DNA from: a virus
Lineage: Duplodnaviria; Heunggongvirae; Uroviricota; Caudoviricetes
Reading direction: 5' to 3' (one strand)
IMG/VR virus record: IMGVR_UViG_3300016472_000494
DNA: 64,000 bases
Part shown: piece after piece, positions 1,749-48,226 of the stretch
How positions within the stretch are numbered: the first letter of the stretch is position 1
Layout: each line of letters begins with the position of its first letter
Notes under the pieces: generated by a model
The model's input: only the letters and a program-made list of their open reading frames with translations
The model's database searches: none
Told to the model about the DNA's origin: nothing
Translations under genes and position numbers: made by a program

Positions 1749-1780
1749 ACTTTAGTTAATTTTTTAAAGCAAAAAAAAAC

Positions 1781-2113
1781 ATGGCTTTACAAGCAACATC
1801 ATCTCTTAAGTATAATCATGGAACTTATGAGAGCCCATATTTTCGCTTGGTGTTACACCTGAGCATCAACGGTAATGAAACACCTGTAGACTGCATCATG
1901 TACTCTTCTAAAGAAGATTACACAGATAATGCAGTTCCTATTACAGTGTTGCCGTTTTATATTGCAAATCAAGAACTGAGTGCATCAAACAATGCTCACG
2001 GAGTTGTTAACAAGTTTTTGCTTGAAGTAACCAAAAGAACAAAGTTTCTGTTAGAAGAAATGTTTTCAGGTGTAACTTTTGAAATTACAGGAATCCCTTT
2101 AGAAGGAGAGTAA
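1781..2113 (+). CDS. hypothetical protein
   Basis: 110-aa ORF co-oriented with flanking + genes; no recognisable motif. Confidence 0.4.
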   Translation: MALQATSSLKYNHGTYESPYFRLVLHLSINGNETPVDCIMYSSKEDYTDNAVPITVLPFYIANQELSASNNAHGVVNKFLLEVTKRTKFLLEEMFSGVTFEITGIPLEGE

Positions 2114-2323: not shown

Positions 2324-2773
2324 ATGGCCAAAAATAAAAAAACCAAACTTACAGTTCAACAATTACGTGATATTCATGTAGAACTGAATGGTAATCCTAC
2401 ATCAGGTGTGAAAGGATTGCTTCAAGAAAAACTTCCTTTTGTGCTTAAATTCCACATCACTACTGTTGCAAAAATCGCTTCAGAGGTTTATACTACAACA
2501 GAAGAGATGCGTATTGAACTTGTCAATCAATATGGAAAGCTCAATGCAGGAGGATTCATCAATGTGGAAGCTACTGTTATTGAAAAAGGTAAAAAAGGCG
2601 AACCAGATAAAGAGGTTGTTAACCCTAACTACACCAAATTTGTCAAAGAATGGAATGACGTAGTGCAAGTTGAAAAGGAAGTTGAGCATCATGCGTTTAC
2701 TATTGAAGAGTTTGAGGGTCTGGAAACAGACGCAAACTATCCTGCGTTCTTCAGCTTGTTAGATTTGGGTTAA
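2324..2773 (+). CDS. hypothetical protein
   Basis: 149-aa ORF, preceded by TAnnTTTG element, followed by a hairpin terminator. Confidence 0.5.
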   Translation: MAKNKKTKLTVQQLRDIHVELNGNPTSGVKGLLQEKLPFVLKFHITTVAKIASEVYTTTEEMRIELVNQYGKLNAGGFINVEATVIEKGKKGEPDKEVVNPNYTKFVKEWNDVVQVEKEVEHHAFTIEEFEGLETDANYPAFFSLLDLG

Positions 2774-2796
2774 ATCACATCTGTTAAAAAAAAGAA

Positions 2797-41936: not shown

Positions 41937-42032
41937 GATAAGTAATATTTTAAGTTTAAACTGTACAAGTTTTAACAACAACAAGTGAGGTGCCTGGGTA
42001 TGATAAGCCAGACACCTTGCACTTGCCGCGTT

Positions 42033-42212
42033 CCCTCTGCACTCAGTTGTTATTGGTTGTACTCAAGACCAATATTCATCACATCTTACCTATCAGGACA
42101 TCCTGTGGTATTATCCACATTACTACCTGCTTTTTATGCAGCACCCATAACTTATGGGTAGTGAGGAGACGCTCTGTGTGATTACAACTGCTCATCCTTG
42201 GGAGGCTGATTA
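42033..42212 (+). repeat. composite structured repeat, unit A (left arm CCCTCTGCACTCAGTTGT ... right arm TTACAACTG plus hairpin)
   Basis: left arm 42033-42056; right arm ttacaactg 42182-42190 then imperfect hairpin tcatcc-ttggga-ggctga 42191-42209. Confidence 0.6.
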
Positions 42213-42427
42213 ACTAGCCGTTAGTGTACATTTCTGTTCCTCATACGGTACGTTTATTAATCAGTGTGGTTTTACATCTTAGCTGAACAGTGTACATACA
42301 AGTGGGTTATCCCTTGCTTGATTGCAATGAGCTGGTCTAAGAAGTCTTCATATCCACGTGAGACTGGTGCATTAAACGCGTGTCTTTCCACGCTGTCACC
42401 ACGTTTCTTGTCTTAGTGTGGTTAACT

Positions 42428-42630
42428 TGGTAGTCAGGACAGGAATCGAACCTGTATGCCATTTGTGGTTTTCTCTTATTACTGTTGCAACAGTACCACC
42501 AGCGTTTTGCAAATTCTGTATGTTGTCCGCTTACTTCTAACATACAATATCAACCTTGCGGGTCAATCTTCGCGTCTACCATATCCAGCACATACTATTA
42601 CTCTTTGTGCCTTCATTCCGCCACCTGACT
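42428..42630 (-). ncRNA. tRNA-like element 1: acceptor stem, T-arm and encoded CCA present, but ~200 nt long with an insertion in the D-region (disrupted or intron-bearing tRNA, or tRNA-derived sRNA)
   Basis: minus strand 5'-AGUCAGG UG GCGG AAU [33-nt insert] UGGUAGACGC ... ACAGG UUCGAUU CCUGU CCUGACU A CCA-3'; acceptor arms exactly complementary; T-loop GGTTCGATTCC seen as ggaatcgaacc at 42441-42451. Confidence 0.45.
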
Positions 42631-42825
42631 AGGTAACACCCTAATTTATCCAACTTACAGGTGTTGTGGCTGTCCTCATCACTGAGTTAGGACTAATCAT
42701 TCGTCCTTACAAGGTCGGGCTGACTTGCCCTGGTGTTCTGCCTATACACCAATGTACGTTCCCATACGGACATCACTCCGTTTCTCATCATGTTGGGCAC
42801 ACTATCCGTTGTATGTTTCGGAACG

Positions 42826-42967
42826 TGTAGTCAGGACAGGATTTGAACCTGTAAGCAGGATTAAGGTCATGCTTTTTCAAGTTTTCCAGTATCCACTTCA
42901 AGTTCCCTTACCTTTGAAGCGATAACTTTCAAATTCACTTGGCGTCTACCAATTCCGCCACCTGACT
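42826..42967 (-). ncRNA. tRNA-like element 2 (paralogue of element 1, 137 nt): canonical acceptor, D-arm and T-arm with a ~60-nt insertion in the anticodon region
   Basis: 5'-AGUCAGG UG GCG GAAUUGGUAGA CGC ... ACAGG UUCAAAU CCUGU CCUGACU A-3'; D-loop with GG; candidate anticodon stem CAAGU...ACUUG split by an insert. Confidence 0.45.
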
Positions 42968-43364
42968 GTGTTGAGGATGAGAAGTCCTCTGTGTTGTAGA
43001 GGTAAGTTGCAGAAGCGACTCTCTTGACATTCCTTTCTCAAGGGAACAACACAATGTCTAAAAACAACTACAGTGCTACGTTTCAAGTGGCTTATTAAGC
43101 CTTCGTAGGTACAATAAGGTGATCAACCCTCGTAAATACCCTTCATGCACTGCAGTTGTTTTAGACAAAGTATAGCACTAAGTTGTAACTGGTTCTGCGT
43201 CATAAATCCCCTATTTAACTCCACAAAGGAGATTACAACAGCTTACCTCGTATTAATACCCTTTGCACTCAGCTGTGCGGTCAGATTGTTAAGGTATAAT
43301 AGAGAATTAGTAAGTTTTCATGCTAAAAGCATACTTTAACCAGTATGCCAGTGGTGGGTCAAAC

Positions 43365-43733
43365 CTAAACTAGGTTTTTGGTTACCTCTGCTCTCTCAGC
43401 AGGAGTAAGTCTTGTGAACAGCGTTCTGACAAATGAAACAAGCTGAATGTTATGCTCAGACATGTTTGTTTGCTTAGTTTTACTACTATTGACTGCTGTT
43501 TTTTTCTGGACATTGACTGAAACTGTTGGTTGCGAGTCAGCGTTTCTCAGATTTGTGTAATAGTGAATGGCAACAGCTTGAGCAGTCCGGTTGGTAGCGC
43601 GTGCTGCTTTATCAAATGCCTTACAAAGTGTTCTGTACTTCCGTCGCTTGTTTACAATAGACATGACAAGAGTTTCTTGTTCTTTTGTCCAGAAGCGCGG
43701 GTGCAATGATTGTGAGCTAGTAGGATTTTTCAC
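43365..43733 (-). CDS. hypothetical basic protein
   Basis: 122 aa within the repeat island. Confidence 0.4.
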   Translation of the reverse strand: MKNPTSSQSLHPRFWTKEQETLVMSIVNKRRKYRTLCKAFDKAARATNRTAQAVAIHYYTNLRNADSQPTVSVNVQKKTAVNSSKTKQTNMSEHNIQLVSFVRTLFTRLTPAERAEVTKNLV

Positions 43734-43747
43734 AGGATTTGAAGATT

Positions 43748-43999
43748 TTAGGGTTGTAAAATAAAAAAGCCAATTTTGTCTAACGCGTCACCTGGGTCGT
43801 TGTCTAAGACAACATACTCATCACCATCAAGGTCCTCAAAAATAGACGCTAAAGTGTAACCATTGTCTTTGTAATGGGTAGCAGTAGAGCATTCTTCAGG
43901 ACAAAAGAGTCTGAAATTGCCAGTTTCAGAGTCATCTTCATGAAGTTTTATCAGTTGAGAACCGTGTTGTTTAAAGAACTCATCAACAGTCATTGTCAT
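43748..43999 (-). CDS. hypothetical acidic protein
   Basis: 83 aa. Confidence 0.35.
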   Translation of the reverse strand: MTMTVDEFFKQHGSQLIKLHEDDSETGNFRLFCPEECSTATHYKDNGYTLASIFEDLDGDEYVVLDNDPGDALDKIGFFILQP

Positions 44000-44252
44000 C
44001 AGGTAAACTTTTAGGTTGTGAATTTTGATCGCGAAGTTTTTTGATGCAAAAATCCAGGTTGAGTTTGTAAGTCTCTAACTTGATGATCATGGATGAATCA
44101 GTGCATTCAGCTATGTCATACTCAACCCACTCTTTCATATCCTCAAGGGTATTAAGAACCTCATAATCAACATAGGCTTTAATACCAAAAGAAGACAAGC
44201 TAATCACACTCACAAAAAGTGTGAGAAATACAAATAGTTTTTTAAGGTTCAT
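43983..44252 (-). CDS. secreted small protein
   Basis: 89 aa; signal peptide MNLKKLFVFLTLFVSVISLSSFG. Confidence 0.4.
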   Translation of the reverse strand: MNLKKLFVFLTLFVSVISLSSFGIKAYVDYEVLNTLEDMKEWVEYDIAECTDSSMIIKLETYKLNLDFCIKKLRDQNSQPKSLPDDNDC

Positions 44253-44515
44253 GTTAATTACAAGATTTTAGTGGTCAAAATAATACAAGTAGAAATTTAG
44301 AGCACCAGCGCCAGACATACCAACGCCGCTCGTTGGTCTGCTTTTATCGTTTGATTGTAGTTTGTACCAGGTCAGAAACATTGGGGTGCTTCTGTGTTAA
44401 AGCGCCTGTACAAACCAGAGGAGAGGAGCGGAAATATTTTTCTCACAGATCTGCCTGGCGCGGGTGACTCTAATGCTTCTACAGGGAGAGAGAGACAAGA
44501 CAACAAGGTCTTCCT

Positions 44516-44640
44516 CTTAGCACTTAGTTGTAACAAGTGGCACCCATTTGCAGGTAGGTGTTCTCCAATGGTTTCCTATTACAGCATACGTTCTGTAATA
44601 TTCCCTGCTTGTTCTTGTTACAACTGCTCACGGTAGTGAG
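44516..44640 (+). repeat. composite structured repeat, unit D
   Basis: left arm cttagcacttagttgtaa 44516-44537; right ttacaactg 44618-44626 plus hairpin ctcac-ggta-gtgag 44627-44640. Confidence 0.55.
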
Positions 44641-44865
44641 TTAGTGCTTTGAGAATAATATAAACAGTTGCAATAGTAAGATTAGTGGCGCTATTGCCCT
44701 TAATACCTTGCTACCAAAATACAACTATGCTGCCTAGCATACAACCTCAAGCCATAAATGAATGGCATAGTCAGGTTTACATAGTACTTAATGTGTAGAC
44801 TTACTAGTAAGATAAGTTAATCTACTATTGCAACTGGTGTTTAAAAAAGATCCCTCTGCACTCAG

Positions 44866-45072
44866 TTATAATGTATAAGAAACACCAAAATGTTGCTCAA
44901 TAGCATATAGAGCTTCCCAATCATTACCTAACATTTTATTGTCTATGCAGACATCAACATTTAATTCTTTAGCTCTTTTCCATACATGAAAAGCTTCTTC
45001 AGGTGTATGTGCTATTGAAAATAGCTGCATATATTCTTCACCTGATTCTTTGTTTTTAATAAATTCCACCAT
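44866..45072 (-). CDS. small hypothetical protein
   Basis: 68 aa; its stop is overlapped by a left-arm repeat copy (44849-44873). Confidence 0.3.
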   Translation of the reverse strand: MVEFIKNKESGEEYMQLFSIAHTPEEAFHVWKRAKELNVDVCIDNKMLGNDWEALYAIEQHFGVSYTL

Positions 45073-45118
45073 ATAGTTAAGTTTTATAGTTAAGTTTTAA
45101 GTTTTACAAATCTATTAA

Positions 45119-45269
45119 CCCCTCTGCACTCAGTTGTAATATAGTTTTCACAAAACATGGCTTTACATAGTCATTATGCTATGAAGGTCTTCACCTCACG
45201 GATGTTTGTCACTTTTATTACAACTGCTCACCCTTGGGAAGTGAGTTATGGTGCATTAAAATTGGTTGA
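45119..45269 (+). repeat. composite structured repeat, unit B (most complete copy)
   Basis: left arm ccctctgcactcagttgtaa 45119-45138; right ttacaactg 45218-45226; hairpin ctcac-ccttgggaa-gtgag 45227-45245; tail ttatggtgcattaaaattggttga 45246-45269. Confidence 0.65.
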
Positions 45270-45397
45270 TAACCCACAACCTTTCTAAAGGGGTTCTAGT
45301 AAAAGCTATAACCAAATGGTTAATACAAGGCAGCTAAACCTAGAAACAATTGCAAGACTGAATCTGCCTATCACATTCTTGCTTTACAATTAATATT

Positions 45398-45549
45398 CCC
45401 TCTGCACTCAGTTGTAACAGGGTCCGGTGGTACCTATTTCAATTACCTTTTTTCAAGGAGCTATTTCAGCCTTACTTTCAACCCTTTACGTACAGGTTAC
45501 TTCAGTAGTGTTATTCACACTGGTAATTATTACAACTGAGTGCAAAGAG
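45398..45549 (+). repeat. composite repeat, unit E: perfect-type terminal inverted repeats (~20 bp) flanking ~110 bp (MITE-like)
   Basis: ccctctgcactcagttgtaa (45398-45417) versus ttacaactgagtgcaaagag (45530-45549), reverse complement with a 2-nt indel. Confidence 0.65.
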
Positions 45550-45792
45550 AATAAGTTAATCAAGAAATGAAAAAGACATTGTATGGCAAAAACTGATAGA
45601 TTATAGCCATTTAGTGTCAAAATTTGAGCGTTCTGAGAGGTTTTTGAGGTGATTAAGAGGATGAGGAGGGGTGTGCTACCACTCACGTAACTTCTTGCTC
45701 ATCAACAACTTACTGAACACTTATGTGTCAAAAAAGCAACTGAGAAAGCGCTGTGTAAATACAGCAACTTTCTCAGAAACTTGTTCAAGTGC

Positions 45793-46284
45793 TTAAAGAC
45801 TTGCGTTTTTAGCACTACGTACAGCGTTGAACTCACGTACAGCGTCTGTATTATTATGCTGTACATAGACGTCGTGGTCTTGACCTGTTGGGTCATACAC
45901 AGAAAACCTGATGATGCGTTCACCGTCTACGCAGAGTTCTATACCGTCTTGTCCTGCGCGTTTGACAAAACTGTCAAGGGCTTGAGAAGCGGGGAGACTC
46001 TTGTTGGCAAACTGCTCAAAGAGACTCTCAGGTACTTCGCTCTCCAGGTACTCTTTGATGACGATGTGTCCTGGAAGCGACAGTGTCTTGTTAGACTGCA
46101 CAAAGCGCTGTAGCACTTCGCACTTAGCGCGTAACAGGGTACTACGCTTGCGTTCTCTAATCCAAGTCCCTTCAGGGATCATAGAGGATTGAGACAGTTG
46201 TAAATAGCCGTACTCAGGTTTGTTTTTAAACGGAGTAATGAGGCTGCCTGTGGTGGAGTTGGGGATGATTTGAACTTGAGACAT
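45793..46284 (-). CDS. hypothetical protein, paralogue 1 of a tandem pair (start at Met 46284)
   Basis: 163 aa from MSQVQIIPNSTTGSLITPF...; ~45% identity by eye with the 46540..47040 product; the track N-terminal extension is low-complexity and lacks homology. Confidence 0.5.
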   Translation of the reverse strand: MSQVQIIPNSTTGSLITPFKNKPEYGYLQLSQSSMIPEGTWIRERKRSTLLRAKCEVLQRFVQSNKTLSLPGHIVIKEYLESEVPESLFEQFANKSLPASQALDSFVKRAGQDGIELCVDGERIIRFSVYDPTGQDHDVYVQHNNTDAVREFNAVRSAKNASL

Positions 46285-46317
46285 AGGTAAAAAGTTTGGT
46301 TTTAAGTGTGAATTGAT

Positions 46318-46400
46318 GGGGGGGTTGAAGGTTGTCTGTACTAAGTCTGTTCTCAGAGTTGTACTCAAAGGGGGTTTGAGGGTTGTGTTGAGGGTTGTAC
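46318..46400. repeat. G-rich degenerate tandem repeats GGGTTGA(A/G)GGTTGT upstream of paralogue 1
   Basis: ggggttgaaggttgt (46321-46335), gggtttgagggttgt (46371-46385), gttgagggttgt (46386-46397); similar ggggggttgcaggttgcag at 47089-47107 upstream of paralogue 2 and gggggttgaaggttgg at 47736-47751. Confidence 0.55.
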
Positions 46401-46539
46401 TTAAGAAAAAAAACAGACGCCCTCGTGAATTGTGAGCAGACACCAGAGCACTTTCTTCACTTGTGGTTTAGAAAAAACTGACCTGACTTGCACCAAGGCT
46501 GGGAGACGAATCTCCCAACCTGGTGTGTCAAGTTCAGCG

Positions 46540-47040
46540 TTACGCAGGCAGTGTGGCACTGTTTGCGTTGACAGCTGCGCGGAACTCTGCGACCTCACTG
46601 ACATTGTCGTGGGCTACAGAGATATCAGCCTGCGTGCCAGAGGCATCGTAGTCTGAGAAACGCAGAATGCGCTGACCGTTTTTGGTGAGCGCAACGCCGT
46701 CTTTGCCTGCGCGTTTCAGGAACGGCTGAACAGCCTGCTCGTAAGAGAGGTTCTTGTTCAGGCGCGTAGCATAGTTTTCAGGGAGTTCGTCTTCAAGGAA
46801 CTCGCGAACAACAATGCGTCCTGGCAGCGTGAGCGTTTTGCCGTGCTGTGCTACAAAGCTCTCCAAGACAGAGGTCTTAGCGCGTAGCAAAGCACTGCGG
46901 CGTTTTTCCTCCAACCAGCCGCCGTCGCGCTGAATCATTTCAACAGACTGCAGTTGGAGGTAGCTGTAGTCTGGGTTGCTGTTAAACGGTGTGATAAGAG
47001 CACCTGTCTGAGCATTGGGGGTGATTTGAACTTTGTTCAT
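46540..47040 (-). CDS. hypothetical protein, paralogue 2 of the tandem pair
   Basis: 166 aa; MNKVQITPNAQTGALITPF...; shared blocks LLRAK, TL(S/T)LPG(H/R)IV(I/V)(K/R)E(Y/F)LE, KRAG(Q/K)DG. Confidence 0.5.
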   Translation of the reverse strand: MNKVQITPNAQTGALITPFNSNPDYSYLQLQSVEMIQRDGGWLEEKRRSALLRAKTSVLESFVAQHGKTLTLPGRIVVREFLEDELPENYATRLNKNLSYEQAVQPFLKRAGKDGVALTKNGQRILRFSDYDASGTQADISVAHDNVSEVAEFRAAVNANSATLPA

Positions 47041-47130
47041 GGTAGTTTGGATTTGGGTTTAGTGAAACAAAATGAACTGAATGAAAAGGGGGGTTGCAGG
47101 TTGCAGTGAGCCACAAAGGCTGTGAGAGGA

Positions 47131-47358
47131 CTAATCCTCCCACAACCATGTGCCTACAGATACCAGAAAGCCTATGAACATAAGTAAACTCATGAACCAC
47201 ATAGGTGCTGCGTCGCTGACGTCTGCAAATGTCACGCTGCTGCTAAGCATGCTGATAGCGCCTGCAAGGAACGCATGCCAGATAACTGTCATAGTACCTG
47301 CAACGAGTAGCCATGCAAGTACCTGGGCAGGCATGACGAAATTTTTGATCTTGTACAT
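47131..47358 (-). CDS. small membrane protein (2-3 TM)
   Basis: 75 aa, hydrophobic. Confidence 0.35.
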   Translation of the reverse strand: MYKIKNFVMPAQVLAWLLVAGTMTVIWHAFLAGAISMLSSSVTFADVSDAAPMWFMSLLMFIGFLVSVGTWLWED

Positions 47359-47586
47359 GAGAATTGGGTTTATTGGTTAATGGTGTATCAGTGTGGTTTC
47401 ACATCTTAGATATTTTACAAGAGTTAAGCCTTGATATAAATCTGGTTTCCTCAAAACTAAGAAGTCTTCATACCCAAAGGTTAGTGCAAAGAGAAATTTG
47501 ATTAACTAGACGAGTCTGCTATCGTCCACCTACGTTTTAGTGCAACCTTTCTTGAGGTGTAGTTTCGGTTAATCAAATGAGTTATC

Positions 47587-47730
47587 TCTTTGCACTTAGT
47601 TGTAAGTCTGCCTGGCAAATATTATTACAGTTTAAATCGTGATCTGATTAGTACACGAAGGCTGTAAACCAGGTATTTCTTACAACTGTCAGCCCTTGGG
47701 AAGCTGAAATGGTGCATTAAAATTGGTTGA
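47587..47730 (+). repeat. composite structured repeat, unit C
   Basis: left arm ctctttgcacttagttgtaag 47587-47607; right ttacaactg 47680-47688; hairpin tcagc-ccttgggaa-gctga 47689-47707; tail aatggtgcattaaaattggttga 47708-47730. Confidence 0.65.
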
Positions 47731-47832
47731 ACACCAATGGGGGTTGAAGGTTGGTCAAACGCTTTAAAGACCAAGAGAGACGCTCCTGTGCAGAGCGTCC
47801 CTCCTGTGTCTGCGTTGCAGGTTGGATAACTT

Positions 47833-48036
47833 TTATCCATTGACATTCACGCAGTAGTCTCTGAAGTAAGCAATGGCTTCCTTCATAGTCTTAGCAATGA
47901 TGTCGTGTCCTGCAATGTGCCATGTTTGATACATAGTGCAAAGGATTTGACCTGCATCACCAGGGGGGTCAAGGGTTGCTGTGTTTGGTGGGGGGATGGT
48001 TGTCATAGGGACTCCTCCCACTCTCATCCTCATCAC
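47833..48036 (-). CDS. small hypothetical protein
   Basis: 67 aa. Confidence 0.25.
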   Translation of the reverse strand: MMRMRVGGVPMTTIPPPNTATLDPPGDAGQILCTMYQTWHIAGHDIIAKTMKEAIAYFRDYCVNVNG

Positions 48037-48160: not shown

Positions 48161-48192
48161 CCCAAAAATGCAAAAACCCCCAGGGGGGTACC
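48161..48192 (-). terminator. candidate terminator downstream of gene 48227..48439
   Basis: on the minus strand a C5/G6 hairpin (48177-48188) is followed by TTTTTGCATTTTT. Confidence 0.35.
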
Positions 48193-48226
48193 TGAGGGTT
48201 GCTTAGAGGGAGGGGGATGTTTTTTG

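Follow-up and report, generated by a model that had tools for sequence, protein, structure and literature searches.

A repeated RNA structure with a probable twister-type fold in uncultured crAss-like phages

The type-P1 twister ribozyme (Rfam RF03160, clan CL00120; Roth et al. 2014) is built around three sequence blocks, a UAA, a loop with UCCCAAG and a GAGGG, and its strongly conserved nucleotides lie in the loops L1 and L4 (PMC5408937). Helix P1 is dispensable, and an optional helix, P5, found between P4 and the 3' strand of P2, is variable and tolerated with no effect on cleavage (PMC11662667). Here we describe an element with the same blocks in equal order in IMG/VR virus record IMGVR_UViG_3300016472_000494 (Duplodnaviria; Heunggongvirae; Uroviricota; Caudoviricetes), of which one stretch of 64,000 nucleotides (nt), hereafter the window, was analysed. 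Between positions 42,033 and 47,730 of this stretch, a preliminary description had noticed five units (A to E), each a pair of inverted arms around unrelated sequence, together with solitary arms. In our judgement these arms are fairly probably parts of a structured-RNA family with the fold of a type-P1 twister, which would be transcribed with the early leftward genes and has a predicted self-cleavage site between the U of the UAA and the A that follows it. Going by its sequence, the element would be best described as a new twister-class variant, abundant in uncultured crAss-like phages.

Read 5' to 3' on the gene strand, the first half of the element consists of N4-6 (P1), UAA, UGCAC (P2), CAUWW (L2) and the hairpin CUCAC-UUCCCAAGG-GUGAG (P4 with its loop L4). 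The second half continues with the arm CAGUUGUAA, 22-350 nt of sequence unrelated between copies, the arm UUACAACUG (the two strands of P5), a single A, GUGCA, GAGGG and again N4-6. For comparison, the twister-P1 consensus, taken from an alignment to a canonical match in another contig (L095; other contigs are likewise given by L numbers), reads ccuu-UAA-cgCc-GC-[P3]-cCG-GUCCCAAGCC-CGg-UAAA-gGcg-GAGGG-aagg. The 7-mer UCCCAAG is identical in twister L4 (GUCCCAAGCC) and in that of the element (UUCCCAAGG), and the last two loop positions differ. The twister tertiary contact T1 (CCC with GGG) pairs in equal register in the element, whose arms occupy the place of the optional P5. P1 is short and often weak in both, and both occur near self-cleaving ribozymes and phage genes.

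The fold of the element, an RNA structure, is shown by covariation. In an alignment (A1) of 104 distinct copies, taken from phage contigs of IMG/VR, with the interior of the variable domain deleted and 4 + 4 nt of it kept, the named structure pairs 91.5% of cells against 83.2% in shuffles; none of 500 shuffles reaches any of five measures, and slid controls fall to 31-50%. P2 is paired in all copies (100%) and three of its pairs covary, with the versions UGUAC/GUACA (8 copies), UGCGU/ACGCA, UGUAU/AUACA and UGCAU/AUGCA and single-step intermediates that are U.G on the gene strand. Its fifth pair (columns 16 and 68) covaries as CG in 95 copies, UA in 7 and UG in 2. P4 is 99.8% paired, all five of its pairs covary, and it occurs as at least 10 different Watson-Crick stems. 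The arms themselves, which the preliminary description had suggested would close each variable domain as a long-range RNA helix, do form such a helix: it is P5, 96% paired in the 104 copies, with one-sided changes that are G.U and not A.C. The weak P1 is also recovered, with a mean pair run of 2.31 against 1.19 +/- 0.09 when partners are shuffled and a sharp peak at the exact twister register; at least 4 base pairs (bp) are formed in 35 of 110 copies, against 1-11 at other offsets (e.g., AUUGC/GCAAU, UGGU/GCCA, AUAUC/GAUAU, AUUAU/AUAAU). Most loop columns in A1 are invariant or more than 90% conserved. A10 and A11 of the UAA are invariant, its U is at least 90% conserved, and so is the GAGGG directly 3' of the P2 3' strand. 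Each of these blocks also proved conserved where the scan had left it unconstrained; for example, an exact 20-mer ending in GAGGG is present in 76 of the 110 copies with an identifiable 3' arm in a scan without 3'-arm constraint.

Further support comes from the T1 pseudoknot. IMG/VR was scanned for copies with L4 changed at each C, the partner strand being left unconstrained. Loops with UUCCAAAGG have the partner GAUGG in 12 copies, with 2 more also carrying U and 2 uncompensated, and loops with UUCACAAGG have GAGUG in six of six copies (7 under a looser filter). Single copies pair UUGCCAAGG with GAGGC and UUCCUAAGG with GAAGG, and UUUCCAAGG is found with GAGGA once and with GAGGG (U.G) twice. 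In total, 23 of the 27 distinct variant-L4 copies with an identifiable 3' strand have the Watson-Crick partner, 2 a U.G pair, and 2 are uncompensated. Thus, since the partner strand changed to match the variant L4, all three pairs of T1 (loop CCC with GGG of GAGGG) covary, and they do so in the twister register.

The element is strand-specific and is read on the gene strand, which is the minus strand of the window. One-sided changes in P2, P4 and P5 are G.U on that strand and would be C.A on the opposite one. Of the decisive cases, all 92 have the downstream gene co-oriented with the element; for upstream genes the count is 66 on the same strand versus 4. Folding is more stable on the gene strand in 69 copies versus 40 (p = 0.0015). 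Given this strand, the so-called left arm is the 3' end of the element. The units had also been drawn too small. The arms are where they were placed; however, aligned flanks show that every copy runs past the right arm into a variable 5-bp hairpin with the constant loop CCTTGGGAA, and then into ATGGTGCATTA. To the right of TTACAACTG, this covarying hairpin (CTCAC CCTTGGGAA GTGAG) and the block ATGGTGCATTA are both part of the unit, so that unit A, for example, spans 42027-42381 and not 42033-42212.

Word counts and a repeat finder agree with the five units and solitary arms at the places first described. The word CAGTTGTAA, counted on both strands, was expected 1.17 times in the window and found 8 times, a count reached in none of 100 shuffles; for the 19-mer CCTCTGCACTCAGTTGTAA, up to 3 mismatches being allowed, the expectation was 0.03 and the count 6. 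The repeat finder returned a left-arm family of 7 copies and a right-arm family, with the extension TTACAACTGCTCACCCTTGGGAAG, of 4 copies; the repeat families D1, D2 and D5 and the inverted repeats I1-I7 recover the arms. It also confirmed the extended inversion of unit E, as a 24-nt inverted repeat (92%). A right-arm-like end (GCACAAAGAG) reported inside a tRNA-like element amounts to a weak partial resemblance only.

Outside the window, the 18-mer CTCTGCACTCAGTTGTAA has at least 120 exact matches among IMG/VR viral contigs, so the arms do recur in other phage genomes. In bacterial and archaeal genomes (596 Gb) it has 13 matches, 8 of them real elements, all on contigs of metagenome-assembled genomes. 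These contigs are probably mis-binned phage, and therefore the search, which the preliminary description had proposed for host genomes too, gives no host copy or host target there. Blastn of the region and of the core consensus against 50,697 phage records gave zero DNA-level matches, and a literature search for the sequence of the element found nothing.

Several forms can be told apart among the 110 distinct classifiable copies with an exact 3' arm. The compact form (type 1) accounts for 65. In 19 copies L4 is present and the 5' core is distant (type 2 and similar), 12 are zipped, and 14 are without a recognised 5' partner. Type 2 carries two stems between the P4 5' strand and L4, GUGG-AUAUAAAGA-CUUCUUAG...CUAAGAUG-UGAAA-CCAC and CUGAUUAA...UUAAUCAG. 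Both covary (GUAG/CUAC, AUGAUUAA/UUAAUCAU) in the 15 copies besides unit A from which the type-2 consensus was made, and both have wholly different sequences in L041 and L069. Within the variable inserts of type-2 elements in L014 and L095, there are T-loop-like GGGTTCAATTCCC segments similar to tRNA T arms. In zipped copies the UAA and L4 are replaced by a 5' strand complementary to GUGCAGAGGG, and P4 has a tetraloop; read on the opposite strand, the pairs that are G.U on the gene strand would become C.A. The copies of the window are as follows.

45112..45266, minus strand: unit B, canonical type 1; match to R1, a covariance model of the element, 74.8 bits, E 2.7e-19
45258-45256, minus strand: UAA of unit B, with predicted cleavage between 45258 and 45257
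45255-45251 and 45129-45125, minus strand: P2 of unit B, UGCAC with GUGCA
45250-45246, minus strand: L2 of unit B, CAUAA
45245-45241 and 45231-45227, minus strand: P4 of unit B, CUCAC with GUGAG, around L4 UUCCCAAGG at 45240-45232
45226-45218 and 45139-45131, minus strand: P5 arms of unit B, with a 78-nt variable domain between them
45130 and 45124-45120, minus strand: single A and GAGGG of unit B
45264..45281, minus strand: hairpin GGUUGUGGGUUAUCAACC with AAUUUU after it, immediately before the UAA of unit B (terminator-like scan); either a terminator-like or a P0-like hairpin
47578..47727, minus strand: unit C, type 1; R1 match 64.6 bits, 5' core intact, with UAA at 47719-47717 and L4 UUCCCAAGG
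42027..42381, minus strand: unit A, type 2 (sequence reading, with the consensus from the 15 further copies)
42381-42376 and 42032-42027, minus strand: P1 of unit A, a perfect 6 bp, CGCGUU with AACGCG
42375-42373, minus strand: UAA of unit A; its P2 is UGCAC 42372-42368 with GUGCA 42042-42038
Between the P4 5' strand and L4 of unit A, minus strand: extra stems GUGG...CCAC and CUGAUUAA...UUAAUCAG
42204-42196, minus strand: L4 of unit A, CUCCCAAGG; its GAGGG is at 42037-42033
42190-42181 and 42051-42044, minus strand: P5 arms of unit A, with a 128-nt domain between them
44514..44655, minus strand: unit D, zipped derivative (sequence reading; zipped class known from the 12 of 110 copies elsewhere)
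Pairing of unit D, minus strand: 5' strand UCUCAAAGCACU with AGUGCUAAGAG, and P5 CAGUUGUAACAAG with CUUGUUACAACUA
P4 of unit D, minus strand: CUCAC-UACC-GUGAG, a tetraloop; no CCCAAG loop and no UAA
45394..45553, minus strand: unit E, fully zipped (inverted repeat I3); continuous 24-bp stem and 112-nt domain
44849..44873, minus strand: solitary conserved 3' strand UUAUAACUGAGUGCAGAGGGAUC (repeat and 19-mer scans)
43256-43284, 43169-43188 and 43139-43163, minus strand: three degenerate 3'-strand copies, non-coding, upstream of tRNA-like genes
47385..47503, minus strand: fragment (D9, D13, D17, I12) with a zipped-type 5' arm UCUCUUUGCACU and a type-2 stem GGGUAUGAAGACUUCUUAG...CUAAGAUGUGAAACCAC, the rest of the element being absent

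In unit E, which lacks P4/L4 as well as the UAA, the two strands of the stem are 92% complementary, and on the minus strand they include G.U pairs. Without catalytic loops, zipped copies such as D and E would be unable to use a twister mechanism; speculatively, RNase III might cut them as plain long hairpins. As first described, the solitary arm at 44849-44873 and the stop of open reading frame (ORF) 44866..45072 overlap on the minus strand, and the region of the degenerate copies (43139..43284) is 91% identical in L089.

A number of observations weigh against a twister identity. The P2 of the element has 5 bp, against the 4 bp of twister that a review calls critical (PMC5408937). On its 5' side L2 reads CAUWW, where twister has GC, and on its 3' side it consists of one A, where twister has UAAA; the 9-nt L4 ends in GG, not GCC, so that the 2-bp contact T2 has no evident counterpart; in the Cleavage High-Throughput Assay (CHiTA), twisters are sensitive to defects in the T2 region. 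No Rfam model of the twister clan, RF03160 included, matches the window or the shortest natural copy, either at the gathering threshold or at permissive E-values (up to 5-10). The sequences of P5 and P2 are conserved well beyond the needs of a ribozyme stem, and the 3' strand is retained in zipped and solitary copies, which are incapable of ribozyme function; this persistence hints at a second, sequence-specific role. Finally, unit C has a 3' strand decayed to CUAAGUGCAAAGAG (AAGAG) and has lost the GGG partner of T1, and is predicted to be probably inactive. Its relative in L003, 95% identical, retains the canonical GAGGG.

Other differences concern the reach of the family. P5 is optional in twister; in the element it is in practice obligatory, with a base conserved in sequence and a large cargo. 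Nevertheless, the base sequence is not required by the fold, because mini copies carry another P5: the 70-nt element at 5665-5734 of L131 has CAGUA..UACUG, and that of L150 is different again. The two stems beside L4 in type 2 also set the element apart from twister. Searches of the window and of short natural copies against all Rfam families, at gathering and at permissive E-values, found no family for the units, and R1 in turn does not detect the canonical twister in L095. As for T2, natural variants are too few for covariation; with L2 as CAUWW and L4 ending in GG, a single C17:G34 pair on the 5-bp P2 is conceivable, and we infer that the fifth P2 pair might replace the first T2 pair, C17:G34 being the second.

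In this context we tentatively put forward a wider proposal, which as a whole we regard as possible if a little doubtful. The element would represent an unrecognised twister subclass of uncultured environmental crAss-like phages, with a 5-bp P2, no classical T2 and an optional four-way elaboration beside L4, and its P5 would be a slot for interchangeable cargos of structured RNA, which also occur independently, the units acting both as natural self-cleaving 'insulators' separating early genes and preceding tRNAs and as joints at which gene and RNA cassettes are shuffled among phages.

The alternative that survives best, though we think it unlikely, is that the twister-type fold is a non-catalytic scaffold, a stable nuclease-resistant frame or protein handle that presents functional P5 domains, which might be small regulatory RNAs, decoys or stabilisers of 5' untranslated regions. 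The P5 domains are moderately structured (mean z -1.2), and that of unit A (125 nt) recurs at 90-96% identity, with compensatory changes, in L117 (394-550, minus strand), L179 (251-411, minus strand) and L004 (6468-6625, plus strand). Since these three copies have no ribozyme core, being closed by their own covarying A/U-rich stem just upstream of a gene, the cargo appears to be an independent RNA module. A scaffold would agree with this structure and conservation between phages and with the core-free occurrence upstream of genes (L117, L004), and also with the zipped copies, which retain P5 and not the catalytic loops, the absence of T2 and the 5-bp P2. However, a scaffold needs no active-site nucleotides, and the invariant ones are precisely those of the twister active site (UAA, GAGGG, UCCCAAG), with T1 kept by compensatory change; moreover, the zipped copies show that a plain helix suffices to close P5. 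No antisense target of the P5 domains of the window was found within the window. The sole match there is an exact 16-nt same-strand one between the variable domain of unit B (45152-45167, plus strand) and 1776-1791 (plus strand), just after the tail-fibre ORF, and is probably due to chance (E about 1e-3 in a short-word search).

Much harder to sustain is a reading in which the arms matter as DNA sites, either as the ends of a transposon like a miniature inverted-repeat transposable element (MITE), as the preliminary description had it, or as the boundary of a recombination cassette comparable to the PeSLs discussed below. As do MITEs, the element is short, non-coding and multicopy, with inverted repeats at its ends, and at least 120 contigs share the 18-mer exactly. 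Yet a MITE-like origin does not stand against the strict co-orientation with genes, the interiors, which are 22 to 346 nt long and unrelated in sequence, the ribozyme loops and the RNA-type covariation; only an RNA would account for G.U pairs among the covarying positions and for a pseudoknot. Target-site duplications were sought at the flanks of 104 copies with no consistent direct repeat found, the longest shared word having a mean of 3.0 nt against 2.75 in controls and reaching 5 nt or more in only 8 of the 104; the flanks are complementary (P1), not directly repeated. Neither a transposase nor an integrase was found among the window ORFs scanned.

What this reading does explain is exchange between genomes. 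L003 has 63-66% identity to the window in the terminase and portal genes and 95-98% in the element. It carries a junction that bridges 2.2 kb of the window and falls exactly on the conserved arm, with the body of unit C on one side and the flank of unit E on the other. Equal P5 domains are joined to different 5' halves in L001 versus L008 and in L018 versus L027, and modules of the region occur in differing combinations in L089, L117, L118, L149 and L159. Because of the L003 chimera, the recombined modules and the lack of target-site duplications, these sequences point to homologous exchange at the repeated arms and not to transposition. Thus, of the suggestion that the element had spread, the transposition is not upheld, while exchange of copies between divergent phages, recombining at the conserved arm as in L003, is. 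Recombination at repeats is, however, an expected side effect of many near-identical copies, and we consider a DNA-level element improbable.

Least credible of all is a promoter, that is, an N4-like hairpin-dependent promoter for a virion RNA polymerase, or a terminator/promoter unit, formed by the 3' strand and an A/T-rich GGRTATTAA: the element does have terminators on its 5' side and, 3' of it, start codons at 20-60 nt or tRNAs at ~7 nt, its 3' strand is conserved even in solitary copies, and the virion polymerase of phage phi14:2 transcribes single-stranded DNA, with no known early promoter motif (bioRxiv 10.1101/2020.03.07.982082), but the P1 and T1 pairings make the whole unit one transcript, a promoter with an insert of 22-350 nt is implausible, the information in the A/T-rich block downstream is at most 0.7 bit per position, and sigma-70-like sites are not enriched (11 vs 10.0 +/- 3.7). 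No conserved -35/-10 or Bacteroidota -33/-7 pattern was found downstream of the arm. Nor did the analysis find the arms to be a promoter/terminator pair of ordinary tRNA genes.

Returning to a twister-like ribozyme, self-cleavage at U^A is likely, as the active-site nucleotides and T1 are retained, and the genomic setting suggests what it would do. A start codon is often found 20-60 nt downstream of the element, and at some loci a tRNA follows after ~7 nt (L088) or a further element after 3-8 nt. In 15 of 113 copies a terminator-like hairpin with its U-tract abuts the UAA, the U-tract then being the 5' strand of P1. We propose that self-cleavage of the RNA at U^A (in unit B between 45258 and 45257, minus strand) would part the upstream cistron, often just past its terminator hairpin, from the downstream gene or tRNA, whose RNA would begin with a 5'-OH and a compact leader of ribozyme plus cargo. 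Where the U-tract abuts the UAA, the upstream message would thus have the same 3' end after cleavage as after termination. Early polycistronic transcripts would be processed in this way, and the near-identical arms would double as recombination points for cassette exchange between phages. Bacterial and phage ribozymes have been proposed to process polycistronic transcripts, and the role of such ribozymes is regarded as open (review PMC6765202); the predicted role would match that proposal and parallel the theta ribozymes beside phage tRNAs (PMC10879173).

Other ribozymes adjoin the element or share its strand. L095 has a Hatchet ribozyme at 3239-3088 (minus strand, 81.7 bits), on the strand of its elements, and the canonical twister-P1 match at 2187-2124 (minus strand, 49.4 bits, below the gathering threshold of 67.2) directly adjoins an element. 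In L075 a RAGATH-1-hammerhead-like core at 2710-2795 (plus strand, 35.5 bits, below the gathering threshold of 56.3) is likewise on the same strand and directly adjoins one, the adjoining elements in L095 and L075 being twister-like or zipped. These neighbours fit the predicted self-cleavage. A further motif, AACTTAATAACTTCCCAAGTTGTTGAGGGCAC, a hairpin with a tail, lies just 3' of elements in 8 loci (L035 ~770, L038 ~6709, L095, L123, L157, L183 and others).

The window is that of a phage, encoding a terminase, a portal, a major head protein, a DNA polymerase and a ribonucleotide reductase; the terminase is ~25% identical to those of crAss-like phages (Bacteroides, Flavobacterium and Cellulophaga phages). 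The minus strand holds every ORF of the element region, and the small ORFs beside the elements have no Pfam or PHROG match. Amid the elements lies a paralogous pair of ORFs, 45793-46443 (minus strand, with its start probably the ATG at 46287) and 46540-47040 (minus strand), with ~72% DNA identity over 83 nt and, again, no Pfam or PHROG match. At 46309-46334, 46360-46397, 47078-47103, 47728-47753, 47948-47983 and 48175-48200 the minus strand has a recurrent C-rich motif, CAACCTKCAACCCCC(C). Two of its copies precede the starts of the paralogues by ~30-45 nt, and the motif, unrelated to the arms, may be a promoter or leader element. Two tRNA-like genes, at 42828-42967 and 42430-42639 (both minus strand), share an acceptor stem AGUCAGG/CCUGACU and a T arm and have large insertions; the former, in which 76 nt are inserted between the D and T regions, scores 33.7 bits with Rfam tRNA. 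Neither gene is called by ARAGORN. tRNAs of this type lie ~7 nt after twister-like elements in other contigs (e.g., L088). Cultured crAss-like phages include phi14:2, in which two long intergenic regions close to the start of the genome out-transcribe most genes from the earliest time point on (bioRxiv 10.1101/2020.03.07.982082), and these may be counterparts of the non-coding array of the window.

Several implications follow from the element. Its hundreds of copies in one operon place, after terminators, before genes or tRNAs and always in sense, offer a natural setting in which the role of ribozymes can be tested, with predictions for the processing and stability of transcripts. The variant would show how twister can drift while T1 and the active-site nucleotides stay, with a P2 of 5 bp, no evident T2 and a P5 cargo of hundreds of nucleotides. 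Search descriptors for ribozymes are affected, the current Rfam models missing all these copies, and the elements mark recombination joints in mosaic phage genomes.

Two groups of earlier readings were given up. A relationship to Hatchet, suggested by the common GUGCAGA, was rejected as the helix topology differs, and the tRNA-like, Y-RNA-like, retron and attC readings suggested by the three-way junction were dropped once the twister register was seen. Twister-sister is a twister relative with similar helical connectivity and conserved loop residues (PMC5660989). Its cleavage site, C-A, is in the L1 3' strand and its loop sequences differ, whereas the element has the UAA, GAGGG and UCCCAAG of twister; nor does the element match twister-sister in Rfam. 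Theta ribozymes, which resemble that of hepatitis delta virus, occur in tRNA and non-coding RNA arrays of gut phages and are presumed to mature neighbouring RNAs (PMC10879173). They are of another class and lie 3' of tRNAs, in contrast to the element, which is 5' of genes and tRNAs. The PeSLs that Arbiol and colleagues are said to have reported in 2010, each a promoter plus a simple stem-loop, are intergenic repeats of T4-type phages and reportedly serve as sites of modular recombination. As these do, the element provides a conserved intergenic motif between small variable genes and a recombination site, but it is a pseudoknotted ribozyme-type RNA without a recognisable promoter, whereas a PeSL carries one. 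In RiboJ-type hammerhead insulators and twister-flanked 'Tornado' RNAs, self-cleavage at the 5' side trims the upstream context and leaves a structured 5'-OH end. The tolerance of the fold for a 5-bp P2, for a T2 without evident counterpart and for a large P5 cargo is relevant to engineered ribozyme cassettes of this kind; these cassettes are synthetic, whereas the arrangement described here would be natural and repeated along a phage operon.

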